DNA of 64,000 nucleotides from a virus (Duplodnaviria; Caudoviricetes), in IMG/VR virus record IMGVR_UViG_3300028888_000001; one strand, given 5' to 3'. Positions 6,470 to 60,417 of the stretch are shown one piece after another (the stretch's first letter is position 1; every line of letters begins with the position of its first letter). Below the pieces are notes generated by a model. The model was given only the letters and a program-made list of their open reading frames with translations, was not told the origin of the DNA and did no database searches. A program made the translations under genes and the position numbers.

Positions 6470-9400
6470 ATGGCCTCTACTAATACAAATACTAATTCTG
6501 AAACTCTAATATCGACAGATATATTTGAGATTGCAGAATTTTATGATTATATTAGAGCAAATCATATACCTGACTTGGATGAGACTTCATCTATGGTTGG
6601 TATATTTGGTTATATGAATGAGATGTTTTCTCAGTCTCTTCAGAATACGCTTATAGCTATAAGCGAGACAACTAATGAAACAATACCGACTAGAGCTAAA
6701 TTCACTAAGAATGTAATCACGCATGCTCTTAATTATGGTATTACAGACATTAATGCCAAACCAGCGGTAATGACAATAATGATGTATTTACCATTAACAT
6801 ATTTTGAAGCAAATGTGACTACAGACAATACTGATGATAGGGAAAGAAAAATATTTAGACTATCAAAGAACGTTCCTATATTTGTAGATAAATTTGAGTT
6901 TCATTTAGATTATGATATAATAATCACTAGAATGCTTAATCTTAGCAATGAGTATGTATATACAGCAATCTATGATCTATTTGAAACTGGTACTACAAAT
7001 ATTAAACAGCAAAATCCTTTAAGCGATATTTCTAATCCTTACATAACAACGCTAATCAAAACTAAACTTGAGGGCGTAGAATATTTAGCCTTTTCCGTTA
7101 GAGTTCATCAGGTGCAATATCTTCAAATAGATACTAATATTCTTACTTCAAATAGTATTGAAAATAAGACAGTTACATTTGATTTTGATGGACAGCTAGC
7201 ATCTTTTAACGTTGATATCATAGAAACATCTGGTAGCACTGAAAATATAGTAAAACATCTCACTCCAGTATTTAATGGTCTACTAGATTATACAGTATCG
7301 ACAGATGACTGGTGCTATTATGAATACATCTCTGAGAATACTATAAGAATTATATTTTCTAGAGATGCTTATGTGCCGAAGATAAATCAAATCGTCAGGA
7401 TTAATCTTTATCTATCAGATGGAGCATCTGGTAATTTCACATATAATCAGCCATTTAGGATAGCTCTTCTTGAAGAGAATTATAATAATTACAATGGCAT
7501 GTATGCTCTTATATATCCTCTACTTAAGGGTGTTTCTGCTGGAGGAAAAGACAAAAAGTCTGTAGCGGATTTAAAGAAAATTATCCCTAGGGAAGCATCT
7601 TCAAGAGGATCAATCATTAATACTACAGATTTAAAGAATTTCTTTAATTCTATCAATGATACAGAGTGTAAGCTGTTCTTTAAAAAGAAGAGAGATAATC
7701 CATTCGAAAGAATGTATTATGCTTACATGCTAATGCGCAAAGACGCAAATGTATATCCAACTAACACTATTAATATTAAATTATTACAAACAGACTTTGT
7801 TGGTAAAGCTGGTAATAATAATTTAAGTATTAATCCTGGAACTATATTCTATTATTATAATCACGGATCTGCTGAGCAAAATGATTTTGCTACATTAGAG
7901 TGTCCTGAGATATTTATGCCTGATGATGGCATAGAACGTGATTATGATATGACAATAAACGAAGATGGAGATTATGTGCGTATATTTAAATACGCATCGC
8001 CATTTTTGATTACTATAGATAGTGATTTAATCACATCTTATCTAATGACAATAATGAATGAAAACAAGACGTTTAGATTCGATAGTATAAACACAGAATC
8101 TAATCTTCAATTTGTTGCTACAAATATGCAGTGGGTTAGAAATTATTATACTACAGATGGAACGTCTAATTATGATAATAAATATACTATGACACTTGAT
8201 ATCTCTCAAAATGATTCTTCTAATTATAATCTTATAACTTATCATACAGATGCAAATAATGATATAATATTCGACGATGTGCGTATTAAAGTCTATATAG
8301 TATTATATACAGATGAGACTGCTACGACTCCTTACAGATATAAGGAAGGCGTTTTATCTGCATATGATAACGATAGATATATGTCTACGTTTAAGTTTGA
8401 GTTTGAAACTGATGATAAGATGGATCTTAATAATAGAATTAATATCATCGGTGTTCACAACGCAAAGCCAGAAGAATTTCAAACCAAATCTCAAACAAGT
8501 ACATCTCATGGCTATATGGGTAAGAACACATATGCTAAGTTATTTATCTTGGCAGACTTTGGTACTAAAGTCGGAGATAATGTAAATGGAAATATAGTAA
8601 CCGAAGAGATGGTTGAAACTAAACTATATGGGACTGATGATAATGGCGGAAAAACAAAATTTGGTTTATCCGCAGCAATTCCACAGAAGCAAGATATAAT
8701 AAACGCATATTTGTCTAATGATATTTCTGCCGAGATTGATGGTACAGAATGGTCAATGGTTGATGTTATGCGGGCTAATTCTGAATACATGAATAGAATC
8801 CCAAATCAGAATACCAACCCGAACGTTATCATTAGATGGATTAAAGCAAATATAGATTCTGATTTTGTGCAGAATACTCTATTAAATGATTCCAGAAGCT
8901 TAGCAATAATAAATTCATATAACTATGAAGATCTTAGCAGATACACTCTATGTAACGTATTGTCTGTAGATGATGGTATAGACTTTTATCATGATTATTC
9001 TGCTATGATGCGTTCTGGAATTAGCGTTAGCGCTGTTCAAGAAGTTAGCCCTGATGGAGATTTACTCTATTCTGAAGTAAGTAGAGTTGATGAATGGGGA
9101 ACTCCATATACAGAATGCGCACCAATATATAAATTAAACGAAAATGGCAATAGGATATATGAATATACTATGCTAAGAGTGCCAGTGTTGAAAGCTGGAT
9201 ACTTATCCTCAGAAGAATTAGTTCAAGATTTCATCTATGAAGTTGAAGAGCGTAGAAAATACATAGAAGTTTGTCTTGAGGTATTGGAAGATACATTCGA
9301 TGTAGACTTTAAGTTTGTTAATACATTTGGCCCATCCAAGACATTCTATTATCAAATTCCATCTTCACAGAATTTCAAAGTTAAAGTTTCTGTTAAAGAA

Positions 9401-11001: not shown

Positions 11002-11027
11002 ACCCAGAGGGATTGCTCCCTCTGGGT
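11002..11027. terminator. Intrinsic terminator, representative of a related GGGA-loop-TCCC hairpin family
   Basis: ACCCAGAGGGA-TTGC-TCCCTCTGGGT. Related hairpins at ~16020..16043, 24963..24996, 27937..27964, 34566..34587, 53177..53199, 56568..56595, 60799..60828 and 62267..62294, all at gene 3' ends. Confidence 0.8.
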
Positions 11028-11076: not shown

Positions 11077-13605
11077 TTATTGATAGATCGCTGAATAATT
11101 TATTATTTTTTCTTCTACAAATTCAGACGATTCTTCAACATAATCTATATCAAATGTTACATGCTTTGGGCCTCCTATACGGACTAAATGGATATTTTTA
11201 TTAGTTCTATCTATTACAACAATATCAAATGCTTGTTCTGTTATTGTACCCTTGGTGCGATCAAAACCCATAAGATCTGCATTGCCTTGAGAATCTACCC
11301 ATGGAACACAATTATCTTCTGTAATTATAATAAATGGAACGCCGCCTGGAGAAGTCCAAGCCCCATCGCTATGAGTATGCCCACTAAAAGATGCGATTAC
11401 TTTTTTATTTTGATTATTTGAATTGAACGTATCAACAATTCCCCATAATTTAATCGTATTAGAATTTGATGTGCTTATAACTCCAAGCCCATTACCAGTG
11501 GTCAATAATACTGCATGAGAAAATATTATTATTTCCCATCCATCATCAACATCCATTGCAACATTTTCAAGCCAACTCCATTGATCTGCAGTCATTCCTC
11601 CAGGTGTTATTAAATTATCATTTTCATCATAATAGTATGGATTAAACCAATTAAGCATAATATATCTTATTTTTTGTTGATAATTATTAACGTAATAGTA
11701 CTGATATTTAGCATCTCCGTAAACTTTATCTTGTTCATCATTTTGATCCATAGAATACATTATAAATGCTTCATTTATTTCATTACCGCCAGTATAAAAC
11801 CACTCATGATTCCCCATAGCATGATAATATTTACCAGGAAAATATTTTTTAATATCGCTATAACATAAAGTAGCATCTCTAGCTCTATCAACATCATCCC
11901 CAGTATTAAAAAGTTTACGAATATATGTATTATTATAAATATAATTTAATAATTTAGGAGAATTATGTCCTCCTGCTCTATTATAATGCATATCCGATAT
12001 CCAAGCAAAACAATCACCTGTGGAAATATTATTTTGAATAAGCTCGTTAATTCTAGATATTTTATTATCTAAATAATCATTTTCAAAATAATACTCTGGA
12101 ATTTCTACATTGGATTCAGAATTACTTTTTAGTAAATCTGCTTTTTGCATTCTATCATATAAAGTTTTTGGATCTACGTAGTCAGATACATCTTTATCTG
12201 CAATATAACCAGTAAAAGTTTTGCTTTTTTCAATTAATATATTTCTAGGAACTATTTTAGTCCAATCATCATTATTTGCTAAATACGTCATAAATGTTAT
12301 ATATGCCGTATTTTCAAAAGTAGTAAATTGAAATATGCCATTTGTTTGATTATTATATCTAGCAATATCTGTTCCGCTAAAATCATTTTTAACTATAGTT
12401 TTATTACTATCAAACTGTATTATATAAACGCGATAATTCAAATCTTCATCATATTCATAATAAAATACATAATCAGTGCTAGGCTCAACTGGTATAAACT
12501 CTCTAACAGCTGAATTATTTTGAGCATCGGTATTGGCTTTTGATACGAATTTTCCGTTATTAGTACCACCATTTCTATGACCTTGTTCAAATAATAATGA
12601 ATCATCCCATAAATTTTTTGATTTGCTTGCAATTAAGAAATTGCTTAATTTATTATTGATCCCTTCTAATTCATTTCTTTGACAATAATTTAACTTAACT
12701 TCTTTGTATTCGCCCTTGTAAAATTTTAAATCATATTTTTCTAGAATAGGATCTGTAATAATTTTATTATTAATCGTCTGATTTGAGGGAAATGATAAAA
12801 TAATTTTTGCATAAGCACATTCTGAATCCGTTGTTAAAGTAAAATAATTAATTGCATTAACGACAGTGTACTGAGCACGTTTAATAAATGTGTAATCAGA
12901 TTTATACTGAGCAAGCATAATATAGGAAGCATCATTACATTGTATAGTATATAAAGTATTTGGATCGACTGGTATGTACTGTGAACTTCTAACATTACTT
13001 GAACGCGCCTCAAATTCTCCAGTACTAATTATATTGCCGGATTCAAAGTCTGGTATTTCTATATATTCTAATTCCGGATAATATCCAATTTCAGTTTTAG
13101 TGATTATTTCCTTATCGTATTTGGTAACCACATCATCATTTAAGACATACTTATTTAAATTATCATTGTTAATATTTTCATCGACTTCATATAATTTAAC
13201 GTTTGTAAACTGGTATGTTTCACCAGCATACTCTTGTTGAGCTCTTATTGGATAAAAGCCAAACCTAATATAATTAAAATTTTCTATATCGCCAATAATG
13301 TTATTTGATATATATACGATATCGTCTGTATTAAAATAATAGTTATTATGAGTCCCATCAAGATATTGTACCATAATATAGCCTAAAAGATCATCTGTTT
13401 TATATCCATTATAATTATCAAATGTTAAATAATATCCATATTTGTTAATATTATCATATGGTATCTGGTTGGCAAATAAATAAAAACCAAAACCACCATT
13501 TGTTACATTTATTTCTACTGTATCCATTTCTATAATAATTTTACCGTTTGAATTATTGAATACATTATTATAATTTTCTTCTAAATCCACCAAATCGTTA
13601 GAAAG
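11077..13605 (-). CDS. Cassette A: 5'-truncated tail-appendage-like ORF, beta-sandwich modules plus C-terminal calcineurin-like metallophosphoesterase
   Basis: Frame begins at the 12-bp site (LSND-LVDLEE...) with no RBS. Motifs ISDMH, TGDD, MGNHE, FSH, SGHTH; SKNLWD and IEKSKTFTGY-type modules. Confidence 0.75.
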   Translation of the reverse strand, partial: LSNDLVDLEENYNNVFNNSNGKIIIEMDTVEINVTNGGFGFYLFANQIPYDNINKYGYYLTFDNYNGYKTDDLLGYIMVQYLDGTHNNYYFNTDDIVYISNNIIGDIENFNYIRFGFYPIRAQQEYAGETYQFTNVKLYEVDENINNDNLNKYVLNDDVVTKYDKEIITKTEIGYYPELEYIEIPDFESGNIISTGEFEARSSNVRSSQYIPVDPNTLYTIQCNDASYIMLAQYKSDYTFIKRAQYTVVNAINYFTLTTDSECAYAKIILSFPSNQTINNKIITDPILEKYDLKFYKGEYKEVKLNYCQRNELEGINNKLSNFLIASKSKNLWDDSLLFEQGHRNGGTNNGKFVSKANTDAQNNSAVREFIPVEPSTDYVFYYEYDEDLNYRVYIIQFDSNKTIVKNDFSGTDIARYNNQTNGIFQFTTFENTAYITFMTYLANNDDWTKIVPRNILIEKSKTFTGYIADKDVSDYVDPKTLYDRMQKADLLKSNSESNVEIPEYYFENDYLDNKISRINELIQNNISTGDCFAWISDMHYNRAGGHNSPKLLNYIYNNTYIRKLFNTGDDVDRARDATLCYSDIKKYFPGKYYHAMGNHEWFYTGGNEINEAFIMYSMDQNDEQDKVYGDAKYQYYYVNNYQQKIRYIMLNWFNPYYYDENDNLITPGGMTADQWSWLENVAMDVDDGWEIIIFSHAVLLTTGNGLGVISTSNSNTIKLWGIVDTFNSNNQNKKVIASFSGHTHSDGAWTSPGGVPFIIITEDNCVPWVDSQGNADLMGFDRTKGTITEQAFDIVVIDRTNKNIHLVRIGGPKHVTFDIDYVEESSEFVEEKIINYSAIYQ

Positions 13606-13677
13606 ATCAAATGAAAAATACGTTATTAATCGAAAAATAATAGAATTAGGCGTAAGCCTAATTCACTTTCTAACGAT
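13594..13677. repeat. 84-bp element, copy 1: inverted 12-bp ends (ATCGTTAGAAAG...CTTTCTAACGAT), 60-bp spacer with hairpin; putative back-to-back recombination sites
   Basis: Ends at 13594..13605 and 13666..13677. Hairpin GAATTAGGC-GTAA-GCCTAATTC at 13643..13664. Two substitutions relative to copy 2. Confidence 0.92.
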
Positions 13678-15924
13678 ATCGATGATTTAGAAGAAATATT
13701 TTATGTAGACGACACAGATTATATTGATATAACAAATAAATATAAATATGAAAATTATTCTTCAAATATTAGTGAAGGAAAAATAAATTTTTTCAAATCA
13801 AGCACTAGATTATTAAATATAAACGACCCAATTCCATTATATTTATATGATGAAATTAAAATTATCAAAATAGATGAAGACATTGCTTACACTATAATAG
13901 TTGCCGATAAAAATAATACTTTATATGAAACTTTTTCTAGAATTAAAAAATCTGAATATATTTATAATGTAAATGAAGATAATGCTAATAAAATTATGTA
14001 TATTGTAGCTTTATTTGATAATAATGTAGAACCATCAGATTTGAGTAATTATTTAACAATTCAATCTAAAAGTCGTAATTTAATAACTAATTTATTGCAA
14101 AATACTAATAAAACAAATTTATATTATAAATTAACAATAGATGAAAATGACATTTTATATTATAATACAGTAAAAATATTTAATAGAGAAGCTGACACGT
14201 ATTGGGTAAATTATATCATAGATCCAAACGAATGCGATTTTAATAATAAAGGATTTTACATTAGAATATTAGATAGAGCTAATGTGATAACCCCAACCCT
14301 TCAAAATAGACTATGTTATGTTTATTTAAAAGATTCGGTTGCCAATAAGAATGTTAATGTCTATATATATGAGAAAGATTTAAACAAATCGATTTATATT
14401 GAAAAGCCAGAAAACTTAGATAATGTCGATGTAATATCTCTTGTGCTTTATATTCAGCCGACACAAGAAGATAGTACTAATTATCTAAATATTAATTGTT
14501 CTTTCACGGTATTAATTTCAAAAATACCATTTACAAATGAAACAGAGGCATCTGAACAAAATAAAGAAGAGTATGACGTATCTAATTATAATGATATGAT
14601 AGCATATAATTTAATAAATAATAATAAACTTTCTGCAAAAAATATTATCGGCCCTATCAATAAAACATACACGGCAGTTATTGAACAGGAAAATTGGACA
14701 AAAAATTCGTATTACGTTTTTGATGATATAAATGTTGAGCCATTGGATGAAATATATATCACTTGTTCTGAATGCCATGCTATTGGTTTAAGATTGATAT
14801 ACGGGCAATTTTTTGATGCAAATAATCAAAGTATAAAAAAACTATCAATTAATAAATCTAATTTGTATGTAAATGATACAGATGGCTTTAAATATTATGT
14901 ATCGGTGCCTTATGGGGCTGTCAAATTTCAATTAGAAATAAACCTAATATCTAATGCTATCACAGCAGGAGAGACAAATGAAATTGGAGAGGAATTTTAT
15001 ATTAAAAATTTATTTGTAATTGTAAATAAAGATTTACATACATTTCTAAATAATGATTGGAAACAAGCAATAAATTATTTACAAACTAATGCGAATGATA
15101 AATTTTGTTTTGGTATTCAATCGGACACTCATTTTGCTATGCTTAGTGATACTGTTGGCTATAATCTTGCAGAGGCAACTAAGTATTTTGGATTTGATTT
15201 TATAGCTAATCTTGGAGATATAACTAGAGGTTATAGCGGCGGCACAAATGGTATTTATGATACAGATTCGATGGAAGGAATGAAATATTATGCTAAGCAT
15301 ATAATGTATAGATATACAAACGAAGTTAAATGCCCATTCTTAGTCGCTGTTGGAAATCACGAATATAATATTTTATATAAAAATAATCATCCAGAACAAA
15401 ATGAAAGAGTGTTTACTGAAAGTGAATTATTCACATTATTCATTAGGCAGTGTTACAATACAAGCGCAAGAATAGATGGCGTTTATGGTAAACAATATTA
15501 TTATTTAGATTCTATTGCTGTTAGAGTTATAGTGCTAGATACTAATGACACTAATGGTTCATTTAATATATCAAACGAACAAACTCAATGGTTTATAAAT
15601 ACAGCTTTAAATACCAGTAAACCAGTACTTGTATTGTCACATGTTCCATTAATACAAGAAGTTTCAATTAACTATTCTAGCACATATGCCAATATAGTTA
15701 CAGCATTACAAGAATTTAAGTCTAATGGTGGAAGAGTAATAGCTTGTTTAAACGGCCATGTACATAAACAAGATGCTATTAAATTAGACGGTATATGGTA
15801 TATTTCATGTACATTAAATGAAAGCAATGCTGATACTGTTGAATTCTTTATGGTAGATCTAAATAATTTTAGTATTGAAACTATTGGTATTGGGAATGCA
15901 TCTTCTAGATCTTTTGAATATTGA
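13666..15924 (+). CDS. Cassette B: 5'-truncated ORF with C-terminal metallophosphoesterase
   Basis: The frame of ORF 13996..15924 stays open 110 codons upstream to the 12-bp site (LSND-IDDLEEIF...) with no start codon or RBS. Motifs QSDTH, LGD, VGNHE, LSH, NGHVH. Confidence 0.75.
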   Translation, partial: LSNDIDDLEEIFYVDDTDYIDITNKYKYENYSSNISEGKINFFKSSTRLLNINDPIPLYLYDEIKIIKIDEDIAYTIIVADKNNTLYETFSRIKKSEYIYNVNEDNANKIMYIVALFDNNVEPSDLSNYLTIQSKSRNLITNLLQNTNKTNLYYKLTIDENDILYYNTVKIFNREADTYWVNYIIDPNECDFNNKGFYIRILDRANVITPTLQNRLCYVYLKDSVANKNVNVYIYEKDLNKSIYIEKPENLDNVDVISLVLYIQPTQEDSTNYLNINCSFTVLISKIPFTNETEASEQNKEEYDVSNYNDMIAYNLINNNKLSAKNIIGPINKTYTAVIEQENWTKNSYYVFDDINVEPLDEIYITCSECHAIGLRLIYGQFFDANNQSIKKLSINKSNLYVNDTDGFKYYVSVPYGAVKFQLEINLISNAITAGETNEIGEEFYIKNLFVIVNKDLHTFLNNDWKQAINYLQTNANDKFCFGIQSDTHFAMLSDTVGYNLAEATKYFGFDFIANLGDITRGYSGGTNGIYDTDSMEGMKYYAKHIMYRYTNEVKCPFLVAVGNHEYNILYKNNHPEQNERVFTESELFTLFIRQCYNTSARIDGVYGKQYYYLDSIAVRVIVLDTNDTNGSFNISNEQTQWFINTALNTSKPVLVLSHVPLIQEVSINYSSTYANIVTALQEFKSNGGRVIACLNGHVHKQDAIKLDGIWYISCTLNESNADTVEFFMVDLNNFSIETIGIGNASSRSFEY

Positions 15925-16047
15925 TTTTGTACTAGTATGATAACTTGCTATAAATATATAAGAATATCTCTAGATAAAAAATAAAATAATATTTTAATAT
16001 ATAATAATTTTTATTGTACCCTCCAGGGAGTAATCCCTGGAGGTATT

Positions 16048-17517
16048 TTAATTGTCAATTCTTTTTAGGTTTATCATACTACTCATTAAAAATGTGCTAT
16101 CTTCTCTTAAGTACGCTTCACGTTTTCTATATAATAAATAATTACCATTAAATTCTTGATATCTATCGATATTATGAATGGTGATTCTTTTATTGATACT
16201 AAATAAATTAGTATCTAAATCATTCTTATTAAAATAAACTAAGAAGTTCTCACTATTACTTTGAGCTTCGATATTATCTATCATATGCTCATTATCATTA
16301 TTAAGTCTTATAGTATGTGTTTTAGGACTAATATAGTTGGCTTTGTTTTTTAGATTTTTATTCATCTTAGTTTTATATTGTTTACTAAGATCATTTATAG
16401 TCACCACTGTATCAGTATCATTTTCTGGATTTGATATTACGCCAGCAATTTTCGTTTTGCTCTTGTTTATTATAGTATTATCAAATACTTGAGTGAATGC
16501 ATAGTTTACGTCTATCTCATATGTCTTACTAGTATTATTGATAACCATCCCTATCTCATTAGATATAGAATCGTTGATGTCCCGTATTGATATAAGGATA
16601 GATCCGTAAGGATCATCTTTTCTTTCAGTAAGATTTCCAGATGAGGAGACTATATAAGTGCAATCAAAATCTTGATAATATCTATATGGCGTTGAATAAA
16701 ACACCTTTTGATTATTTAAAAATTGCAATGCTTTATTTACAGAATCATGTGGTGGTAAAATAAATTGAGGGAACGTGTCGTTATATGAGAATGGCTCTAT
16801 AATAAGATTATTTATGTGATTTGTAATATACTTTACAATATCATACATGGTAATATTTCTTGCTGCCATTTCACATGTAATCTTATTATTGTTTATATGC
16901 TCGACACATAATAGTCCGAGTGTTAACTCTGTATACGTATCTCCCTTCATGGTTGGGTTAGTATTCACGTTATAATCTACAGGGTCCATTTTATTTACAT
17001 CGTCAGGCAAAAAATAAATAAATTGCTTCCTGAAACAAAGTAAATCTGTTTTATGAGAAATATTATTATTAAATTTATACAGTGATAGAATGATTAAATT
17101 ATTATTTTGATTTTTAATCATATCATCAACAAGAGATCTATCCAATCTCATGTTACAATATATTACTGGCATTGTATTTATATCATAATTATGGTCAACA
17201 ATCATAGAGCGTAAACACTCATTTTTAATCAGTGTAGTAGTTTTTCTATTAACGTCATAATATTGTAATTGAATCTTATATCTATAAGCAACAATATTTC
17301 GTTTATCTCTTGACGTATTACGACTATAATATGATGTAATGTTAGAATAAGTAGAGTAGCCAGCTCCAGTTACAGATTTTGGAGCTGTATATGTAGCAGT
17401 GCCACCACCATTTTCAGTTGAAAATCCAACTCTAGATGACGTACTTTTTACTGATGCTGATCCATATGATGCTATAGCTCTAGCTTTATCTTGTAATTGT
17501 TCAAAACTCACAGCCAT
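16048..17517 (-). CDS. Virion structural protein, possibly baseplate hub-like
   Basis: 489 aa, RBS GCAGGTG, own GACA-N6-TA motif (17545..17556) and terminator. The hub assignment is tentative. Confidence 0.4.
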   Translation of the reverse strand: MAVSFEQLQDKARAIASYGSASVKSTSSRVGFSTENGGGTATYTAPKSVTGAGYSTYSNITSYYSRNTSRDKRNIVAYRYKIQLQYYDVNRKTTTLIKNECLRSMIVDHNYDINTMPVIYCNMRLDRSLVDDMIKNQNNNLIILSLYKFNNNISHKTDLLCFRKQFIYFLPDDVNKMDPVDYNVNTNPTMKGDTYTELTLGLLCVEHINNNKITCEMAARNITMYDIVKYITNHINNLIIEPFSYNDTFPQFILPPHDSVNKALQFLNNQKVFYSTPYRYYQDFDCTYIVSSSGNLTERKDDPYGSILISIRDINDSISNEIGMVINNTSKTYEIDVNYAFTQVFDNTIINKSKTKIAGVISNPENDTDTVVTINDLSKQYKTKMNKNLKNKANYISPKTHTIRLNNDNEHMIDNIEAQSNSENFLVYFNKNDLDTNLFSINKRITIHNIDRYQEFNGNYLLYRKREAYLREDSTFLMSSMINLKRIDN

Positions 17518-17575: not shown

Positions 17576-20458
17576 TTAAATATTTTTAAGAAATGCAGTA
17601 TATACATCGGCGCATTGCCAATAACCAGATTCTACAGGATGAACACCGCCGTTTGCAATTGGACTGAAATATGTAGTTGTATTTCTAGCATTTACTTGAA
17701 TCTCTTCCATACCCATGTTATATACAGTATCAAGGCAAAGATTTAATGGAATTAGATAAATATTTTCATCTTCCCTATTTTTATAATTCTCTATCTGATT
17801 AGCAACCCATAAAATATTATTTCTTTTATATCTATTTCTCGTTTGACCATTTTTATATGCTTTACCATAAGCATCTTGGGAATAATTTGGTGGGATAGTA
17901 AGACAGATACCGATTTTAATATTTTCATCAAAATCTTTAATCTGAGAAATTACTTCATCGCATAACCCATTTAGATATTCAATTTCAATATTTAATGAAA
18001 TATCATCAGCATATCCAAATGTATCATTAATACCTAAATTTATAAAAAACCAGTCTGGATGATCAAAATTAGTTTCAGAAAAATAATTTGCTATATCAAA
18101 TGTTTCAGTTGTTTCATTATAAAATGGATTATCCACATCACCTCTACCATCTGTGTACGTTTCTCCAGCAGATGTAAAATAAGTTCTATATTTCCAGCCA
18201 GATCTACCCTCATGGTTATTTGGATTGCTTCCTCTAGTACCAATTGTTATGATATTCATTGGATCGGTTGATAAATTTTGATTTAATTTAGTAACACATA
18301 TGCCATTATTTGTAGTACTATCTCCAAGTATTATTAATTTAATTAATTCATTAGCTTTAGCTGTAGCCGATGCGACATAAATAGTTGCAGTTTTTGTTAC
18401 AGTTATATCATTTTTAGTAACTTTTATTGTTATAGGATACTCCCCAACATTTTCTTCAATTGGAGTAACTCTAAAACATCTTTGCAAATGTGTGCCTATA
18501 GAACAAGTTACATCAAAATCGTATTGGGTATCATAACCATCTACGAGATTATCAAAATATATATTAGTTTCATATCCAACCAAAGCATAAATTTTTGGCG
18601 GTAAATTTACTGGAAATTTTGATTTATTAATATTATCGCTTAGAATATATTGTGGATCTATTGCTTTATAATATGGCTCGTAATCAGTTGCTTGATCGCC
18701 TTCTTCAAGCATAGAATTTTTTACGTCCTTATAACCTGCTGAGAATCTATAATAAGCAGCATTATTAGGGGTTGTAAATGTTACCGCTTCTTCTGAATTC
18801 CCACCACTTAAATAATTTTTATTAATATCAAAAATGCAATATCTATAATTTATATAATATTGATCTATATTGCTATATGTATACGTGGTATTTGGTTTTA
18901 TAGATATATAATCGCTTGTTGTATGTGAGGCATTTTCAGATATATTACCATTTATTTGACTTATATAATATCCTCTAGATAAACTATCATCATCTACTTT
19001 TAATAAATTCTTAGAAGTTACAAAAAATGTAGTATCTTCTGGAGTTATTAAATCTTGATTCGAATTGTCTAATTTTATATATTTATTGTCTATATACATA
19101 TAATAATTTTCATACGATGTAGCTTCAGTGCCTTCTTCTAATTGTAATAAATTTGTACTATTGGCAGCTTTTGATTGAGATAGGGCTATATAATATGCTG
19201 ATTCTGGAGATGTTATAGTAAAATGTTTAGTAGAATTAGATGCATTTACTGCAGAATTAGGAATATACTTATTATCGCTATCATAAAATGCATATTGAAT
19301 ATTACTTGTTAAATTAGATGAAATTGTATACTCTGTTGATGGCTTAATTTTTATTTTATCAGTAGCAATATAATTATCATTGTTATTTATTGAACCACTT
19401 ATCCAATTTACATAAAATCCATCTAATAATGTATTAATATCTATAAGGTTTTTACCTTGAATGAAAAACGTGGTATCTTGAGGCTCAATTAATTTGTCTA
19501 ATTCGGTATTTTCCTGATTGTTTTGAATTGCGGGTATATAAATTGGATCTATTGTATAACCATAATCTGCATACTTGGTTCTTTCTTCACCCTCTTCCAA
19601 TTGTATATAATAGTCAGATATATCATTATTATTAAAACTTAAACGTATATACTCGTCCAACGGGCCAGTTGTTATTTGAAGGCCTTTATAAGTATCGCTA
19701 TTGGGGGCATAATATATTGATACATTATTTTGACCTCCGGTATTAATAAATTGCTTATTAAATAAAGAATAAAAGCAAGTACAAGTTTTAATAGAACTTA
19801 AGCAATATGTAGTGTTTGGCTTTATTTTTATATAATCAAATAAAATATAAAAATTATTGTCACCGATTCTGCCAACAGAAACAATATATTTACCAATTTC
19901 TTTATTTGGATCGTCTTTATTAAATAAATTCTTAGAAGTTACAAAAAATGTAGTACTTTTTGGAGTTATTAATGGAATACTATTACAATCTATAAAATTT
20001 GGGATAGAATAATCCAATGATTGTAATTCAATTTTTGTACCTTTATATAAGAAAATTAATAATTGGTTATTGGGTATTGATGAGTAATTTGCAGATATGT
20101 GAATGTATGCAGCATTTTCCGGCGTTGTATATTCTGCAAAAGCAGCATTCATATTATAATCTATGATATTGTTTTCAGCATCATAAACAATGTATCTTGA
20201 TAAATCTACATGTAATGAGTATGTTGTTTCTGGTTCCACATCATAAATACAATAAATAAAACCCGGGTATGGTTTTAAAATCTTTGTTTTATTTACATTA
20301 TTATAGTAAAAGTATATCGCATCCTTTTCAATATATTTTGGTAATATAATATTATCTTTATTATTTATTTCCAATAAACCAATCCATCCAGTGTTTTTAT
20401 ACATATAAGTATTTAAATTGTTAATTCTTTCAATGTTATCAGTATTATCGTTAGAAAG
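17576..20458 (-). CDS. Cassette C: repeated carbohydrate-binding-like modules plus C-terminal SGNH/GDSL hydrolase
   Basis: Begins at the 12-bp site (LSND-NTDNIE...). The track's ATG at 20479 lies in the spacer, has no RBS and is ATA in copy 1. Motifs ILGDS, EGRSG, NLGIND, GVHP; three 'TTFF..KNL...LEEG...Y' modules. Confidence 0.75.
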   Translation of the reverse strand, partial: LSNDNTDNIERINNLNTYMYKNTGWIGLLEINNKDNIILPKYIEKDAIYFYYNNVNKTKILKPYPGFIYCIYDVEPETTYSLHVDLSRYIVYDAENNIIDYNMNAAFAEYTTPENAAYIHISANYSSIPNNQLLIFLYKGTKIELQSLDYSIPNFIDCNSIPLITPKSTTFFVTSKNLFNKDDPNKEIGKYIVSVGRIGDNNFYILFDYIKIKPNTTYCLSSIKTCTCFYSLFNKQFINTGGQNNVSIYYAPNSDTYKGLQITTGPLDEYIRLSFNNNDISDYYIQLEEGEERTKYADYGYTIDPIYIPAIQNNQENTELDKLIEPQDTTFFIQGKNLIDINTLLDGFYVNWISGSINNNDNYIATDKIKIKPSTEYTISSNLTSNIQYAFYDSDNKYIPNSAVNASNSTKHFTITSPESAYYIALSQSKAANSTNLLQLEEGTEATSYENYYMYIDNKYIKLDNSNQDLITPEDTTFFVTSKNLLKVDDDSLSRGYYISQINGNISENASHTTSDYISIKPNTTYTYSNIDQYYINYRYCIFDINKNYLSGGNSEEAVTFTTPNNAAYYRFSAGYKDVKNSMLEEGDQATDYEPYYKAIDPQYILSDNINKSKFPVNLPPKIYALVGYETNIYFDNLVDGYDTQYDFDVTCSIGTHLQRCFRVTPIEENVGEYPITIKVTKNDITVTKTATIYVASATAKANELIKLIILGDSTTNNGICVTKLNQNLSTDPMNIITIGTRGSNPNNHEGRSGWKYRTYFTSAGETYTDGRGDVDNPFYNETTETFDIANYFSETNFDHPDWFFINLGINDTFGYADDISLNIEIEYLNGLCDEVISQIKDFDENIKIGICLTIPPNYSQDAYGKAYKNGQTRNRYKRNNILWVANQIENYKNREDENIYLIPLNLCLDTVYNMGMEEIQVNARNTTTYFSPIANGGVHPVESGYWQCADVYTAFLKNI

Positions 20459-20530
20459 ATCAAATGAAAAATACGTCATTAATCAAAAAATAATAGAATT
20501 AGGCGTAAGCCTAATTCACTTTCTAACGAT
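20447..20530. repeat. 84-bp element, copy 2 (same orientation as copy 1)
   Basis: Inverted 12-mers at 20447..20458 and 20519..20530, hairpin 20496..20517; 82/84 identical to 13594..13677. Confidence 0.92.
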
Positions 20531-22765
20531 TTTGAAGATTTAGAGAATAATGAATTAGAAAATCTATATTTATTATATAAACAAACATATGATTCGCATG
20601 AAATAAATATTAGCATGATTGATAGTTTAGAGCAAGGCAATATTCAAAATGGCGATAATAGCAGTACCAATCAATTAGCTAGATTAAGGTCTGGAGAATA
20701 TTATTCATGTAAAGATTATGATTTTTTAATAACTCCGTATCATTATCTTAGATTATATTTAGTATTTTATGATGAAAATAAAATATGGGATAGTACTGCT
20801 AATATAGAAGATACCGATATTTTATACATTAATAAATCTAAATCATATTTTAGATGCGTTATAATTGATCGCTCCGATTTAAATTCTTGGTCAACACCAA
20901 TATCTGTAGACGATGTAAAATATAAAGTATTCATGGGTAAATACAATTTTAATAATTTTTATAAGAATTATAATAATATTAAAGGTATTGAAAAGGATAA
21001 TAATATTTTATTTTTTATTAATGATCTGGAAGCAGGTAATATTCAAGAAGGTGTTCCTAATAGTAATAATTATGCTGCAAGAGTTAGAACAAAAAATTTT
21101 TATTTAACTAAAGACTATGATAAAATAATTTCTAATTATAATTTTATAGTTTTTATTAATTATTATGATTCTGATAATAATGATACGTATCAAACGACTT
21201 CTAGTAAGGAATTATCCGAAGCCAATAATGAAATAATTATAAATAAAAATTACTCATACTTTAAAATTGTATTTATTGATTTTACAGAAGCTAATTATTT
21301 AACTCCGATAACTCCATACCAAGTGAGATCATTAGCCTTTTTAGCAAAGACGACTAATGAAACCGAAGCGTCATTATCCCAAATTAAAAAAGAAATAGAT
21401 AATAAAATTACAATTTTAGATAATAAAAACTATTTACTTCATAATAAAGGTTATAATGTTACTGCTATATATGATTGGGAGCAGGGTAATATTCAAGACG
21501 GCATTCCTAACAATAGTTCATATGAAGCAAGAGTTAGAACAAAAAATTTTTATTTATGTAAAGATTATAAAAAATTAGTTACGATTAAAACAACTTTACG
21601 TTTATATTTAACATTTTATAATTCAGATTATATTTATTTAAATAGTATCGAAGGTAATGGAGAATTAGCCATAGATCAATCAGCTACATATTTTAAATCT
21701 GTTATAATTGATCGCTCCGATTTAAATTCTTGGTCAACACCAATAACTCCAGATGATGTAATAACTAATATATTTTTAGTAGAATCTATCGAAGAATTAA
21801 ATGAAAATGGAGATGCCGTTCCAAATTATTTTAAAACGCAATTAGAGACAGTTTCTAATGATGCATTATATCATAGTGCATCCGTTGGCAAAAATGGGGT
21901 TTCATTTATTTTTTGTACCGATTTACATTGGTCAGTAAATCAAAAACATAGTGCAGCTTTAATGAAAGAAGTAATTAATAATACATTAATTAATACTATA
22001 ATCTTGGGTGGGGATTATATAAATCAATTTAATGGCGGCAAAGAATATGCTATAACAAATATGAGAGATTGCATTTCTAAATATTGGAAATTATCGGATA
22101 GAGTATTTCCCATATTTGGTAATCATGATAGAAATTCTAATGGTACTCCTGTAGAAGCCTATATGACTGAAGATGAAGCTTATATAGAATTAAATAGATG
22201 GATTAATCCAATAGCTAAATACGCTGATGATGATTATTTTTCTTATTATTTCGATGATGAAAAATCAAATACGCGATTTATAATTTTTAAATCAGCAACT
22301 CAATCTATTTCATCTGATATTACTGATTCTACTATAAATTGGGTTGAGTCTAAAGTATTAGAATTGCCAAAAAATTGGCATGTGATACTAGCATCTCATT
22401 GGATAACTACTGGACAAACTTCTTGGGATCATCCAATGGATAATGACGGGACGTACACTGGTAGGTTGACTAATAATGCAAAAAAATTATTTGATAAAAT
22501 GGAAGTTATCAATAATGATTCAACAAAATGCACAATTGAATGTGGCATATTTGGTCATATTCATTGTGATGTAGTTATGAATGATTTATATAGTTTCCCA
22601 ATTATATTTACAGACACAGATGGAAATTTGGCACTTGGAATTTATCCATTTGAAGAGGGCACAGTAAATGAACAATGTTTTGATATAATAACTATAGATT
22701 ATAATAATAAAACTGTTTATTGTGATCGTATTGGACGCGGTGTAAGTAGAGAAGTAAATTATTAA
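20519..22765 (+). CDS. Cassette D: three 'EQGNIQ' modules plus C-terminal metallophosphoesterase
   Basis: The frame of ORF 20615..22765 is open 32 codons upstream to the 12-bp site (LSND-FEDLEN...). Motifs CTDLH, GGD, FGNHD, ASH, FGHIH. Confidence 0.75.
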   Translation, partial: LSNDFEDLENNELENLYLLYKQTYDSHEINISMIDSLEQGNIQNGDNSSTNQLARLRSGEYYSCKDYDFLITPYHYLRLYLVFYDENKIWDSTANIEDTDILYINKSKSYFRCVIIDRSDLNSWSTPISVDDVKYKVFMGKYNFNNFYKNYNNIKGIEKDNNILFFINDLEAGNIQEGVPNSNNYAARVRTKNFYLTKDYDKIISNYNFIVFINYYDSDNNDTYQTTSSKELSEANNEIIINKNYSYFKIVFIDFTEANYLTPITPYQVRSLAFLAKTTNETEASLSQIKKEIDNKITILDNKNYLLHNKGYNVTAIYDWEQGNIQDGIPNNSSYEARVRTKNFYLCKDYKKLVTIKTTLRLYLTFYNSDYIYLNSIEGNGELAIDQSATYFKSVIIDRSDLNSWSTPITPDDVITNIFLVESIEELNENGDAVPNYFKTQLETVSNDALYHSASVGKNGVSFIFCTDLHWSVNQKHSAALMKEVINNTLINTIILGGDYINQFNGGKEYAITNMRDCISKYWKLSDRVFPIFGNHDRNSNGTPVEAYMTEDEAYIELNRWINPIAKYADDDYFSYYFDDEKSNTRFIIFKSATQSISSDITDSTINWVESKVLELPKNWHVILASHWITTGQTSWDHPMDNDGTYTGRLTNNAKKLFDKMEVINNDSTKCTIECGIFGHIHCDVVMNDLYSFPIIFTDTDGNLALGIYPFEEGTVNEQCFDIITIDYNNKTVYCDRIGRGVSREVNY

Positions 22766-22887
22766 AATTTATTTTTATCTTTAAATTAATTACTTTTAAT
22801 TGCGAAGCGGAGGAAATTATAAACCCTGAATAAATAAATTTCTTTTCGAAAACAGAGTATTAATATATTATAAACGAGGTACCCCAT

Positions 22888-24963
22888 ATGGATAATAATA
22901 TTAATACTCTGTATTTTATACAAGAAAAAGCTATATTAGAAGCGGTTTTTGCTGATGTTTTTAAATGGCTTAAGAAGTCTTCTAATAATACCACTGTAGT
23001 TCCAAAATCTACTCCAAAGAAATCGGCCAAAGCAAAACTTTCTCCATGTACATATATTGACCAAGATTCCAAAGAAATAGTTATTCAAGGAATTAATTTC
23101 CGTAAATTTATTTCTCGTCTAAAGGAAACTTATAAATATAGAGGAATATTAAATCTTTTTGATCGTAAATACTCTACATGGGAAATGAATTTATGGTATA
23201 AAGAAAAAATAACTAAAGATAGAATGAAAGTTATAGAGCTTAGAGTTCCACTATTTTTCTCATTAGAGCTTTATAAGATATTTCAAGATTTGTACGAATT
23301 TTATAGATATTCAATGTATCAGTCTATAGCAAATGATATTTATAATAATACGTGGATATCTAATTTTGAGAAAGTGAATCCTGTATATACAGACATATCT
23401 AAATTATCTAATATCACATATGAGTTTAAACCATATCAAGCAGAGTTTATTAGACAATATTCTGCTTTAAAACAGCTCTATGATTTAGATGGCTATATTC
23501 TTTCATTTGAGCAAGGTTTAGGAAAAACATTAACCGCTATAGGACTAGTGGAATGCTTAAACAAAGATCAGATTATTATCATTTGTCCTAACTCGCTGAA
23601 AGAAAACTGGGCTAATGAAATCAGTATGTATTATAAAAAATATAATACTCATAAAGGTCTTTTAGAAAAAGAAATTTTTATAAATAATAATAAAAAATTC
23701 AATGCTAAAAATCCTAAATATATTATAGCTAATCAAGAAAATATTCCTTCAATATTTTCTATAATAAAGCAAAATAAAAACACTATGATTATTGTAGACG
23801 AATGTCATAACTTCCGTAATATAGATGCTGAACGTGTAAAGAATCTTATTAAGCTTAAAGAGCTTATAGATTGTAAAGATAATCTATTAATGTCTGGAAC
23901 GCCCATTAAAGCAACGCCAAATGAATTAGCTCCAGCATTAAGAATGATAGATCCATATTTTACCGAGCCAGTATGTATAAGATATATAAAATCATTCAAT
24001 ACATATTCAGAAGAAATATCTCGTGTTGTTAGGGAGAGATTTTCAAGAATAATTTATAAACAAACTAAAGAACAAGTGCTACAACTACCGGAGAAAAATA
24101 TTTATCAAGCATTTTTACCATTAAAGCATGAAGAACCATATTATGTGTCTACAATAAGAAAACAAATAGCACAGGATTTTCATAAAGAGTATGAGATTCT
24201 TTATAAAGATTTTTCTATTTATAAAAATAGATTTGAAACGCTTGTAAAGAAATATTCTTCAGCCCCAAGTATAGATACTAAAGTATATCTAAATTATCTT
24301 GCTGGGAATATAAATTTTGGAGAATACAGAGAAGAATTATATAAAGATTTTCTCAAACAATATGTATATCCAAATATACAAGATATATCAGAAATTAAAG
24401 AGCTAAAAGAAATGCAAACTAAATATATCTATATGTATAACTCTGCTATGGGCAAAGCAATAGGCAAAAATTTACCTCCAGCAAGAGCAAATTGCTATAT
24501 AGATTTATTTGACGAGAATAAACAATTCTTCATAGAAAAAATAGAATCTAATAATAAGAAAACCGTAATATTTACTCCATTCTTGGATGTTGCAAATCAT
24601 ACTGCTGAAGAATTATCTAAATCTGGAATTAGTAATGTTCTTATTACCGGTGAAACTAAAGATAGATTTTCTCTTATCACAGAGTTTAAAGAATCAGATA
24701 TAATAGATGTATTAATTGCTACAACACAAACTTTAAACACTGGCGTTACTCTAGTTGAAGCAGATCAAATGTTCTTCTTAGGTGTTCCATATAGAGATGC
24801 TGATTTTGAACAAGCTTGCGATAGAATACATCGTATAGGGCAGACCACAGATGTAAATATTTATATCATTCTTCTTAAATCTAAACAAGAAAATGTTTCT
24901 ACTAGAATAGAAAAAATAATGTCATGGTCGGCAGACGCGGTGAATGATTTCATGGATATTTAA
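22888..24963 (+). CDS. SNF2-family (SF2) helicase/ATPase
   Basis: EQGLGKT, IVDECH, SGTP, QACDRIHRIGQ; late promoter 22851..22862. Confidence 0.9.
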   Translation: MDNNINTLYFIQEKAILEAVFADVFKWLKKSSNNTTVVPKSTPKKSAKAKLSPCTYIDQDSKEIVIQGINFRKFISRLKETYKYRGILNLFDRKYSTWEMNLWYKEKITKDRMKVIELRVPLFFSLELYKIFQDLYEFYRYSMYQSIANDIYNNTWISNFEKVNPVYTDISKLSNITYEFKPYQAEFIRQYSALKQLYDLDGYILSFEQGLGKTLTAIGLVECLNKDQIIIICPNSLKENWANEISMYYKKYNTHKGLLEKEIFINNNKKFNAKNPKYIIANQENIPSIFSIIKQNKNTMIIVDECHNFRNIDAERVKNLIKLKELIDCKDNLLMSGTPIKATPNELAPALRMIDPYFTEPVCIRYIKSFNTYSEEISRVVRERFSRIIYKQTKEQVLQLPEKNIYQAFLPLKHEEPYYVSTIRKQIAQDFHKEYEILYKDFSIYKNRFETLVKKYSSAPSIDTKVYLNYLAGNINFGEYREELYKDFLKQYVYPNIQDISEIKELKEMQTKYIYMYNSAMGKAIGKNLPPARANCYIDLFDENKQFFIEKIESNNKKTVIFTPFLDVANHTAEELSKSGISNVLITGETKDRFSLITEFKESDIIDVLIATTQTLNTGVTLVEADQMFFLGVPYRDADFEQACDRIHRIGQTTDVNIYIILLKSKQENVSTRIEKIMSWSADAVNDFMDI

Positions 24964-25097
24964 ATATTCTAGAGGGATTACTCCCTCTAGAATATTTTTT
25001 GGTAAACCTAAATTTAGTTATATAATATATATTTGTATAGATAGAACAATCTATACAAAACTTATAAACTTTATCATTCATAAAAGGAGAAATAACA

Positions 25098-34543: not shown

Positions 34544-34648
34544 TTATATAAATACATATCGGAACCCGGAGGGAGAAATCCCTCCGGATTATTTTTTGTT
34601 TAAATTTGACATTTTAGTAATTTTAGTATAAAAGGAGGCTAAAAATCA

Positions 34649-37600
34649 ATGGCTTTCAAACTACCAAAATTAACCCGCTCAAACACAAATTACTTAAAGA
34701 ACGCTGTTAAATCTATAACTTTTATCGCTGCAGATGTGGCTAAGTCTGATCTTGTCCCTGCAGTAAGCGATTTCGTCGAAAGTAATAAAGATTTCGTTAA
34801 AGCCACTTACAGTAATATCCGAATTCCAAAGATGAAAGATAGGAGGAATATTTCTGCTTTTAGTAATAATAAAATCTTCCAAGCTGTAAATTATGGTATT
34901 AACAATCTTAAAACCGATCTCGCATCAGGCGATTTCTATGCTAAAGCTAGAGCAGATGCTGACCTAGCTGAAGTAATGGGATTCGATATGTCTGATTGGG
35001 ATGATTTAGATAATTTTGATTTCGAAAACTTTGATGACATCGATAACGCTCCCAGTGCTGAGCCTCAAATGACTAAAGGCGATGCAGCCATAGTTAAATC
35101 AATAGAAGCAACCTCTAGCGCTAGCGCTAGAGCTACAGTTAACGCCGTTGTGAGCAGTACAGAGCAAAGTATAAAAAGTTCTAGGCTCATTTCTGGTATG
35201 CTATTCCAACAGCAGGAAAAAATATTTGCTTCTACGCATAGAGATCTCTCACTTATTGGAGGAACACTATCTTCACTATTTGAATTTACTAAAGGAGTTC
35301 TTGGCAATATTGATAGCAATCTTAGTGAATTTCAGACTGAAATGCTGAAGACAACAAATGCACAGACTGAAATTCTAAAAGATATCTTAGAGATCCAAAG
35401 AAATCAATATAAGTCAGCACAAGAACGTGAACTAGAAAACGCACAGAAACGCTCATCCAAACGCAAGCGGCTAGGAGACATATACGGCATAGATGATTAT
35501 GTCGATATGGTTAAAGATAATGTAAGTTCTCTTATGTCTGAGTTTGGGTTTGGCGGAGATGAAGGCGGTTTAGGCGTTGATTCAATAATAAAAATGTTTG
35601 GGGCTGCTCCTGTAAAGGAGATTTTAACATTTGGTATGTCTAAAATGATACCATCTATAGTAAAAACAGCTACCCAAGCATTGGATACTACTATATCAAG
35701 TGTGTTTGCTAATATAATGGCAAGGCTTGATAATAATAAAGATGACTTTGGTATTCTAGGTTTTATCTCTAGAATATTTGGTGTTAACACTGACGTTTCT
35801 TCAACTATCAACACAGCTAAATATGAAAAAGGTCCAGTGCCATTTGATGGTATAACTAGAAAAGCAATTATCGATGTTATACCTGGATATCTGTCTAGAA
35901 TAGAAGCATTCTTAACTGGAAAGCCGATGCAAGATTTTGACTTCGAAAGTGGTAGATGGCAAGATCTTGCTAAGGGCAGAACTAGATTTGAAAAAGCAAA
36001 ACAAGACCGTATTAACTATGCATTATATGATGTTAAAAATGCTGGTTTTGAAGACGCTGTTAAAAACGCTGCCCCATCGAATGAAGCTGAAAAGAAAAAA
36101 TGGGAAAAAGCTGCAAACGATTTTCTTAATGAGTTTCTAGCTAAAAGATTAGGTGTTTATAATGCAAACGTAACAGATCCAGATAAAAATGGCATAGATA
36201 TAACAAAAAATCCAGAGTTATATAAATACTTCTCTCAACTTTTAAAGATATATGATACATTTGACGCTGAAGAGTACACTGACTCTAAAGGTAGAAAAAG
36301 AACAAGATACACTAAATCTAGTGTAAAAGCTAAACTGCCTGCAGAGTTAATGGAAGCAAGAACAGCCCAACAAAGAGCTATTGAAGAAATGGGCTCTACT
36401 GGGCATTCGTCTGTAGTAAAAGCATTTGAATATAAAGATGCTGCTATACCTGAATTTGCTGAAAGCTTTGTAGATAGACTCGCTGGTAAATTTGGGAGCA
36501 CGAATTTAAGTACTCAATCAATAAACGATCTCTTTTCTTATAGAGATAATTATGGTAATACATTGCATACATATCTCTATAATATAAACAGAGAACTTCA
36601 ATACATAAGGCTATATGGTAGCACGTCTGCAGCAGCTCCTAAACCAGAAAACACAAGTAGCGCTAGGAGTAATATTATTGGTAGTATAACCGGAGCGGAT
36701 CAAGCATTTTTCAGTTCTAGATATGGAAGTACAATCAATAATACTGCATCTACAACGTCTACAGCATCAGATGCTGCTAGAAGATTTGAAGCTATTGATC
36801 TTAGAGACGTAGCTTATCTCAATGAACAAGAAAGACTTAGACAAGAAAGATTAGCTGCAGAAGAAGAGGCTAGACAAAAAGCTGAAGATGAAGCTAGGCA
36901 GAAAGCCGAAGCAGCCGCTAAATCTAATTATAAAAAGAGTACATTTGCTAAGATTTTAAGTGATGATACACTAGATCTTAGAAGCTTTTCTGGTGATGAA
37001 AGAGATTATGTTTTAGGCCTTAGTAAGCTTGCCGCTAGAGGCCAATCTGACAAGATTAGAGCTATATACGAAGACGTTAATGATACTACAGATGGATACA
37101 ACGAAAAGAAAGTTTCTGATTTCTTTAAGAAACAATTTATCGATGCTGGTATCACGTCTAAAGAATTATATGAAACGGCTATTTCTCGTGCTGACGCTCA
37201 AGGCAAACGAACCTATGAAGTTATCAGTGATTCTGAAAGATCTTTCTTAAATAAAATTTTAAGAAAGATTAAAATTGCTCGTGAAGGTAGTTTTCTAGAT
37301 AACATCACGGCAGCTCCAGCTAAGGCATTTTCTAATATCTTGTATAGTGCTGATAGAGCAATTTACGAGATGTTTTTCAAATATGAATTTAAAGATGAGA
37401 ACGGTAATGACTATAATGGATTCTTAGACTTTCTTGCTGGGCAGACTAAGAGCGTTATTGATAAAATTAAGACTCAGATATTCGATCCGTTAAGAGAGAA
37501 ATTCAATAATTTCATTGAAGGTACAATCTTTAAGAAAGAAAACAGAGAAGAATTCTTTAAGGGACTTAAAGAGACTTTCTTAGGAGGAGCCAGTAAAATT

Positions 37601-53161: not shown

Positions 53162-53212
53162 TAAAAATAATATAGCCCATAGGGATTGCTCCCTATGGGT
53201 CAGTATTTTGTT

Positions 53213-59498: not shown

Positions 59499-59797
59499 CG
59501 TTTTAATAGTGCTATTTACTGACTATATCTTCATCCATAATAATATTATATTCCTTTCATATACAATATTTAAATTTACTATGGAGATGCGCGCTTTGAT
59601 CAAGGAATTTCACCTTAAACCTACTCCTTTCGGATAGTCGATACACCTTTCTATTTAAATAGACTTGGCACGGGATAATATAGCTCCTCCCCCGTTAGCA
59701 TGTAGTCATTTATTCTTATCTACACACACCTAGCAATTACTAGTTCACGCATTATTTCGCGAGGAGATTACTCTCCAAGGGAGCCATGGGCAAGTTT
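59499..59797 (-). ncRNA. Group I intron 1 in nrdD (299 nt, no ORF)
   Basis: P1: exon GGAGCU pairs with GGCUCC (U.G at the splice site). P10: UGCCCAU pairs with exon-2 GUGGGCA. R UCGACUA, S AAGAUAUAGUC, terminal G. Splicing restores TSGA-VG. Confidence 0.9.
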
Positions 59798-60337: not shown

Positions 60338-60417
60338 TATAAAATCACCATTTATATCGTGTATGCGCAAACATACACGAGTACACCTTCCTATCTTATT
60401 TTTTCTTATTTTATTTT

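Follow-up and report, generated by a model that had tools for sequence, protein, structure and literature searches.

An 84-bp element with inverted 12-bp arms is very probably the silent junction of a tail-fibre shufflon in an AR9/PBS1-like jumbo phage

A 64,000-nucleotide stretch of DNA from a virus of the Caudoviricetes (IMG/VR record IMGVR_UViG_3300028888_000001; this whole stretch is referred to below as the window) contains two copies of an 84-bp element, each lying between two long open reading frames (ORFs) that point away from it. Why should a short element with inverted ends be kept nearly unchanged between genes that have almost nothing else in common and that seem to lack a beginning of their own? 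A preliminary description, made from the letters of the window, had offered three answers: recombinase-binding arms around an insulating spacer, an empty docking site for a mobile promoter or N-terminal module, or a very small invertible switch. From the evidence set out below, the 84-bp element is very probably the silent head-to-head junction of a tail-fibre shufflon in an AR9/PBS1-like jumbo phage, that is, a place where alternative C-terminal halves of a fibre would be stored back to back, each behind its own recombination site.

The two copies (13594-13677 and 20447-20530) form a 98-nt direct repeat with 95% identity, so that their similarity stops about 14 nt past the right arm. Each consists of a left arm, ATCGTTAGAAAG, a 60-bp spacer, and a right arm, CTTTCTAACGAT, which is the exact reverse complement of the left arm; the arms are 72 bp apart from centre to centre (coordinates in Table 1). 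All four 12-bp arms are perfect, and the window holds two in each orientation. With one mismatch allowed, the observed count of the 12-mer was reached in 0/100 shuffles (0.39 expected), as was the count of four matches to its 9-mer core, TCTAACGAT (0/100). A fifth near-site at 550-561, with one mismatch, was rejected as no more than chance would supply; the gene that contains it is unrelated and GC-richer. The two spacers match at 58 of 60 positions in the same orientation, and each contains the hairpin GAATTAGGC-GTAA-GCCTAATTC, with a folding energy of about -12 to -14 kcal/mol (z -4 to -5.6). In either copy, a consensus terminator scan called this hairpin only on the minus strand (9 pairs, of which 4 are G-C; tail TATTATTTTT), where, being G+C-containing and followed directly by a U-tract, it has the form of an intrinsic, rho-independent terminator. 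Read on the minus strand, the frame runs through the spacer into the arm as L-I-T-Y-F-S-F-D-L-S-N-D in copy 1, where the triplet is ATA, and as M-T-Y-F-S-F-D-L-S-N-D in copy 2, where it is ATG. The preliminary description of the element is borne out in every detail: it had reported this ATA/ATG difference, the conserved spacer in one orientation, the 9-bp GTAA-loop hairpin with its T-rich run on the minus strand, and flanking ORFs unrelated at the DNA level, and the adjoining cassette DNA indeed proved unalignable.

The arms encode Leu-Ser-Asn-Asp (LSND) and continue in frame, outward, into four long ORFs, which, counted with the arm, extend over 11077-13605 (-; A), 13666-15924 (+; B), 17576-20458 (-; C) and 20519-22765 (+; D). 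All four frames are intact across 750-960 codons in an AT-rich genome. Their N-termini have only LSND and a few further residues in common and are nearly unrelated beyond that, and their C-terminal parts show weak protein similarity only; PHROG matches are to tail and virion proteins, and the domain found in B and D is that of calcineurin-like metallophosphoesterases. The open frames of B and D begin behind a stop codon in the spacer and then proceed for 122 and 32 codons, respectively, without an ATG, GTG or TTG. Gene callers place the starts of B and D at internal ATGs (13996 and 20615) and that of C at the spacer ATG. A GGAGG-type Shine-Dalgarno (SD) sequence is present on nearly all genuine window genes sampled but is absent from the ATG, ATA and ATT candidate starts in or near the element. 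The 84-bp element also accounts for the truncated or wrong starts that gene callers give to these ORFs, and for assembly breaks. A mobile element resembling a miniature inverted-repeat transposable element was considered and rejected, the copies being found only in frame at the heads of cassettes and without target duplications.

The missing beginning of cassette A was located in a relative. By exact look-up of the four cassettes, A was found to cluster at >=90% identity with P0046, a 1236-aa expressed fibre protein of a related 324.7-kb phage (L003), and it shows 90.5% amino-acid and 91.8% nucleotide identity to the C-terminal 842 aa of that protein. P0046 consists of a 394-aa N-terminal region ending in ...VTGDQLTE, followed by LSND and the A-like cassette, and the DNA homology of this expressed gene with the window starts at the arm. 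The 400-residue N-terminal part was then used as a query for other proteins with the same constant region. P0052 has a constant part that is 90% identical and carries a GDSL cassette; P0053 has one that is 82% identical and is encoded on a 313,331-bp contig, where B, C and D are also present in identical form and cassette A as a near-identical variant. P0046, P0052 and P0053 agree in the N-terminal region as far as ...VTGDQLTELSND and bear three unrelated cassettes right after LSND. Because these proteins are colinear up to LSND and unrelated beyond it, the arm is the junction between a constant fibre half and exchangeable C-terminal halves. In-frame repeats that join one constant 5' part to alternative 3' parts, as in a shufflon, are therefore present here, and cassette A is parked in the window phage but expressed in L003.

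The same arrangement recurs in L003, which has six sites in total. The expression site at 11183 and a site on the opposite strand at 6195 form a 20-bp perfect inverted repeat that flanks a 5-kb expression module, and two 84-bp elements follow at 17132-17215 and 22820-22903, with spacers of exactly 60 bp, the invariant core TCTAACGAT, and the hairpin at the same position. One check that had been proposed was whether the spacer is ever replaced by a long insert; in L003 the same head-to-head arms do bracket the 5-kb module instead of the 60-bp spacer. Short repeats in both orientations that bound segments thus number four in the window and six in L003, above the three that a shufflon takes at the least. 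The L003 shufflon forms one compact 19-kb block between nrdD and a helicase gene, whereas that of the window phage is split. Two independent 324.6-kb scaffolds of the related phage stop exactly at an arm (the end of L004, at 17140, and the start of L007, at 1), one of them after the 9-bp core and the other at the 12-mer's outer edge. These scaffold ends are consistent with the assembly ambiguity reported for shufflons (PMC5430464) and are at most suggestive of alternative arrangements.

The tyrosine recombinase that would act on the arms is encoded with the locus. In L003 a gene for a 340-aa enzyme of this class lies directly after the expressed fibre gene; its product matches the Pfam model Phage_integrase (4.5e-26) together with a SAM-like N-domain, and its best NCBIfam matches are the XerA, XerC and XerD models, all below cut-off. 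On the contig that encodes P0052, the recombinase gene is flipped with respect to the fibre gene, which is what inversion of a segment carrying the recombinase would be expected to produce. An intact recombinase that is 82% identical (P0173) is encoded on a 313,345-bp metagenomic contig that also bears an identical copy of the cassette C protein, the window phage's 313-kb contig; its neighbours there are tail genes and cassettes of the GDPD and GDSL kinds. The identical 12-mer CTTTCTAACGAT also occurs in a more distant 262-kb phage (L008), which encodes a recombinase with 59% identity; it lies there inside a 34-bp inverted-repeat pair (8000-8033 and 8787-8822), located 1.2 kb from the recombinase gene. 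This pair surrounds a 754-bp segment between two divergent tail-fibre paralogs, both starting MSINKATL, and the 12-mer lies ahead of their start codons. Because the 12-mer of L008 precedes the start codons, it is conserved as a recombinase site and not for the LSND peptide. The L008-type recombinase was also seen on nine other contigs, which are only 2-5 kb each, implying that assemblies break nearby.

These observations suggest the following mechanism. The 12-bp arm would be the crossover site for an Xer-like tyrosine recombinase. Read in frame as LSND, the site would head a promoter-less, start-less C-terminal cassette with a surface-polymer-degrading enzyme domain, and elsewhere in the genome the same site would form the end of the fibre's constant N-terminal half of 394 aa. 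By inversion, the expression site could recombine with any arm of opposite orientation, which would place a new cassette under the fibre promoter and would also bring along linked genes, such as the 489-aa ORF behind C, which is probably a cassette-linked accessory gene. Since each invertible segment (for example B...C) holds two convergent cassettes, neighbouring segments meet head to head, and the 84-bp element would be such a meeting point without an expression module: two outward-facing sites and a 60-bp dummy spacer that would offer a functional start to neither side. Synapsis between the two arms of one element is probably prevented by their closeness, and they would not normally recombine together because, by what is generally known of tyrosine recombinases, 72 bp from centre to centre is very short. 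We infer that inversion is active in the window phage today.

Two of the earlier proposals can be judged against this scheme. Recombinase-binding arms with an insulating spacer that keeps the cassettes silent are essentially what the evidence supports, with the spacer as the presumptive insulator. The proposal of an empty docking site was right in that an N-terminal module exists, constant and 394 aa long, but the cassettes would reach this module by inversion between arms and not by insertion into the spacer.

The spacer hairpin would most likely halt read-through transcription into the parked cassette on the side of its U-tract, and its predicted role is accordingly that of a terminator or insulator. 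Between the window phage and L003 the hairpin retains 8-9 pairs by way of two double substitutions (A-U to G-C and G-C to C-G), the terminal pair alone being lost, and the A-tract beside it, which is the minus-strand U-tract, is conserved. Maintenance of the pairing by compensatory changes is suggested by this comparison, though not conclusively. The loop reads GTAA in the window (13652-13655) and TTAC in L003 (17190-17193), which on the same strand are exact reverse complements of each other, whereas the flanks are oriented alike in both phages, as would result from a small inversion of the loop within the palindromic stem. A separate family of G+C-rich terminator hairpins, of the CCCAGAGGGA...TCCCTCTGGG type, marks the ends of gene blocks, including the 3' ends of cassettes A and B (11002-11027, 16020-16043, 24968-25006, 34565-34603 and 53176-53214).

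Table 1. Features of the two junctions and of the adjoining cassettes in the window (functional names are predictions)
Feature	Position	Strand	Remarks
Cassette A, headless	11077..13593	-	C-terminal domain related to metallophosphoesterase cassettes
Candidate crossover site heading cassette A	13594..13605	-	Reads CTTTCTAACGAT = L-S-N-D; homology to the relative's expressed fibre starts exactly here
Junction 1 spacer, 60 bp	13606..13665	.	No promoter-like feature, no SD, no conserved start codon
Hairpin, putative terminator-like insulator	13643..13664	-	9 bp, then U-rich tract on the minus strand
Candidate crossover site heading cassette B	13666..13677	+	Exact 12-mer
Cassette B, headless	13678..15924	+	Metallophos domain; open from 13630, no ATG/GTG/TTG before 13996
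489-aa gene with its own SD	16048..17517	-	Immediately downstream of cassette C, inside the presumed B...C invertible segment
Cassette C, headless	17576..20446	-	C-terminus homologous to SGNH/GDSL esterase tail proteins
Candidate crossover site heading cassette C	20447..20458	-	Exact 12-mer
Junction 2 spacer, 60 bp	20459..20518	.	58/60 vs spacer 1, same orientation; hairpin 20496-20517
Candidate crossover site heading cassette D	20519..20530	+	Exact 12-mer
Cassette D, headless	20531..22765	+	Metallophos domain; no start codon before 20615

Several observations weigh against an operating shufflon with these junctions. Neither an intact recombinase nor the expressed fibre is encoded within the 64-kb window; the recombinase and the expression module are far from the cassettes, so that expressing any of A-D would require inverting tens of kb. 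The three large contigs with cassette C all have one gene order. The scaffold ends at arms could stem simply from a two-copy direct repeat. No conserved dyad typical of the core sites of tyrosine recombinases was found around the 9-12-bp core, and the covariation score observed for the hairpin in the two lineages was reached in 17/500 shuffles.

The distance between cassettes and expression module might be given a meaning of its own. In this bolder version the spacer would be a dedicated parking module under selection, a one-sided terminator of fixed length that silences headless cassettes and prevents recombination of adjacent sites, and the same sites would have driven inversions of tens of kb that split the shufflon into two distant loci. 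We regard this version as doubtful. If it were true, a host-range recombinase would also remodel the overall genome architecture of a jumbo phage.

The same distance could instead mean that the junction is a fossil: cassettes A-D would have been separated from expression module and recombinase by a rearrangement and would no longer be exchanged, and the element would be a relic. The absence of recombinase and expressed fibre from the window, the split of what is a compact 19-kb block in L003, and the single gene order on the three contigs all fit this explanation, as does the fact that the window retains only a 3' remnant of the recombinase gene, its last 13 codons (INHIHGEHKRFVH*; 62224-62265, +). 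On the other hand, the arms are identical at 12 of 12 positions and the spacers at 58 of 60 while the adjoining cassette DNA cannot be aligned, the four long frames have stayed open in spite of the AT-rich genome, and the genome does have an intact recombinase. A fossil is therefore improbable, and a functional silent junction is the reading that we retain.

The remnant itself adjoins a terminator hairpin (62267-62295) and is convergent with a GDPD-domain ORF at 62328-64000 (-) that runs off the end of the window; in place of the remaining recombinase gene there is another GDPD-domain ORF (60834-62261, -), which lacks an SD. This region has the appearance of debris or of one more part of the shufflon.

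Far less can be said for the third of the earlier proposals, in which the spacer would flip between its own arms and give a start and the peptide MTYFSFD to the ORF on its left or right, to be expressed as a stand-alone protein. The geometry permits such a switch, and in copy 2 ATG-TYFSFD abuts the arm in frame. However, the ATG is not conserved, being replaced by ATA in copy 1; in L003 a stop codon stands on that side, two codons ahead of the left arm, and an ATG occurs on the opposite strand, buried inside the hairpin stem. The candidate start also has no SD, the 60 bp between the sites fall short of the minimum reported for Cre, roughly 80 bp, and the authentic N-terminus of the fibre is the 394-aa constant region. 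Even a spacer in flipped orientation would be an expected by-product of larger inversions that include it. A micro-invertible switch is thus very improbable. That the element is an ordinary divergent intergenic regulatory region of two duplicated gene pairs, kept alike by gene conversion and serving downstream or non-canonical starts, is scarcely credible: the ATGs used by gene callers for B, C and D would suit it, but the frames are open for 32-122 codons upstream of called ATGs and in frame through the arms, no called start has an SD, sigma-70-type promoter-like matches between 10800 and 23000 are no commoner than in shuffles with none inside either spacer, and in a relative the A cassette is demonstrably the 3' portion of a longer gene. 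Inspection by eye, not a formal search, likewise revealed no AR9-type late promoter motif, AACA-N6-TA, in the spacer.

Judged by the surrounding genes and by tblastn matches to AR9, PBS1, phiR1-37 and Staphylococcus jumbo phages, the window phage is an AR9/PBS1-like jumbo phage. The cassette block is followed, in an order shared with L003, by genes for a helicase, a MYG1-like exonuclease and an ABC ATPase and by a large RNA-polymerase-like gene, and a single ORF of 5145 aa with an SD occupies 34649-50086 (+). The nrdD, shufflon and helicase blocks are arranged in a different order in the window phage than in L003. In the window nrdD is in two pieces (56615-57757 and 59768-60370, both -), split by an ORF with HNH endonuclease and helix-turn-helix features (58182-59219), which suggests an intron or the insertion of a homing endonuclease. 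The segment 53213-56401 holds a dCMP deaminase gene, a 518-aa ORF and a 212-aa ORF, the last of which resembles the C-terminal end of an L003 metallophosphoesterase cassette (E 4e-7); since the deaminase genes of L003 lie inside its shufflon, this segment may be a displaced piece of the shufflon.

Wider searches for the element returned little. Exact and degenerate searches of IMG/VR found no copies, megablast of the locus against GenBank phages gave no match, and an IMG/VR relative with an anchor protein 56% identical (L001) had no homologues of cassettes A or D. A scan of JGI metagenomes with the cassette-head pattern produced one match, inside a formate-tetrahydrofolate ligase gene, which was set aside as due to chance. 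Head-to-head pairs of the 9-mer core 56-76 bp apart numbered 7 in IMG/VR and 61 in GTDB genomes; none of these had a similar spacer, and their number does not exceed a rough chance estimate for 18 specified bases. A cluster of such pairs in Anaerococcus/Peptoniphilaceae was traced to an unrelated long palindromic repeat and rejected as a form of the 84-bp element. This repeat is multi-copy and about 110 nt long, with 9-mer ends ATCGTTAGA...TCTAACGAT about 85 bp apart and an unrelated, G+C-rich interior; it occurs in L019, L022, L026, L032, L035, L036, L079 and others and is apparently a separate bacterial family.

Tail-fibre shufflons allow one phage genome to carry several solutions to host recognition. 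In the present system the parts to be exchanged are not simple binding tips but large enzyme domains of the metallophosphoesterase and SGNH esterase types (GDPD-type ORFs lie nearby), so the phage may switch the cell-wall polymer that it attacks. The 84-bp junction illustrates how spare parts could be stored: in frame, startless, behind a terminator and between two crossover sites. Because CTTTCTAACGAT and an Xer-like recombinase recur in several uncultured jumbo phages, the pair could also serve as a marker for systems of this kind.

Among known inversion systems, Gin, Cin and Min (of Mu, P1 and p15B) resemble the one described here in purpose, being host-range switches in which DNA inversion joins alternative C-terminal fibre parts and accessory genes to a constant N-terminus; Min, in addition, uses multiple crossover sites. 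These enzymes are serine invertases that act at 26-bp dyad sites with a Fis-dependent enhancer. In contrast, the recombinase of the window system is of the tyrosine type and its site is without an evident dyad. A serine-invertase site of the hix or gix kind was rejected on the same grounds, and no serine recombinase (resolvase-type domain) was found among the window ORFs scanned, the associated enzyme being Phage_integrase/Xer-like.

The R64/IncI shufflon (Rci, sfx, pilV) is closer, since it too depends on multiple inversion by a tyrosine recombinase between inverted sites that are in frame with a constant 5' gene part. Each of its segments holds two partial 3' ORFs that face each other, and assemblies often break or are mis-joined there (PMC5430464); its sfx sites are asymmetric and only partly conserved (bioRxiv 10.1101/2024.10.25.620183). 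However, an sfx site consists of a 7-bp core, GTGCCAA, and a conserved 12-bp right arm (core plus right arm GTGCCAATCCGGTNNGTGG, against CTTTCTAACGAT in the window). Judging by description, Rci is also set apart by an extra C-terminal domain, the L003 enzyme being Xer-like and 340 aa long, and the target of the plasmid system is a pilus adhesin and not a phage tail fibre. We found no description in the literature of a conserved, terminator-bearing spacer between head-to-head sfx sites. Because both the site and the type of enzyme differ, the window system belongs neither to the Rci/sfx family nor to the serine invertases (Gin/Cin/Pin/Min).

Of the systems described so far, the Rin shufflon of Bifidobacterium prophages comes closest (Mavrich et al. 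2018, PMC6109161). Its locus is flanked by a phage-encoded tyrosine invertase that is XerD-like and has no arm-type binding domain, and each variable receptor-binding cassette is preceded by an 11-bp asymmetric site, rix (TTCCCTAACCC). As in the window phage and its relatives, a short asymmetric repeat is the point at which alternative C-terminal cassettes are attached to a constant N-terminal gene, there for a receptor-binding protein (PMC6109161). The rix site and CTTTCTAACGAT have a pyrimidine run followed by CTAAC in common but are not identical, and the recombinases, compared by layout and not by sequence, agree in consisting of a SAM-like N-domain and a catalytic domain only. The two systems differ in their setting: Rin operates in temperate siphophages of Actinobacteria with small Rv cassettes that resemble the C-terminus of a receptor-binding protein, whereas the AR9-like jumbo phage studied here, of about 313 kb, has cassettes of 750-960 codons that end in different enzyme domains and are arranged in convergent pairs, a conserved 84-bp double-site junction with a hairpin, and a system split over distant loci. 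In a full-text literature search, no paper was found in which shufflons and jumbo phages are mentioned together. The shufflon principle is already known from Rin, Rci and Min, but its setting here is unusual; what sets it apart from the described systems is the jumbo-phage host, the long and enzymatically diverse cassettes, the fixed 84-bp double site with its conserved hairpin, and the split of the shufflon.

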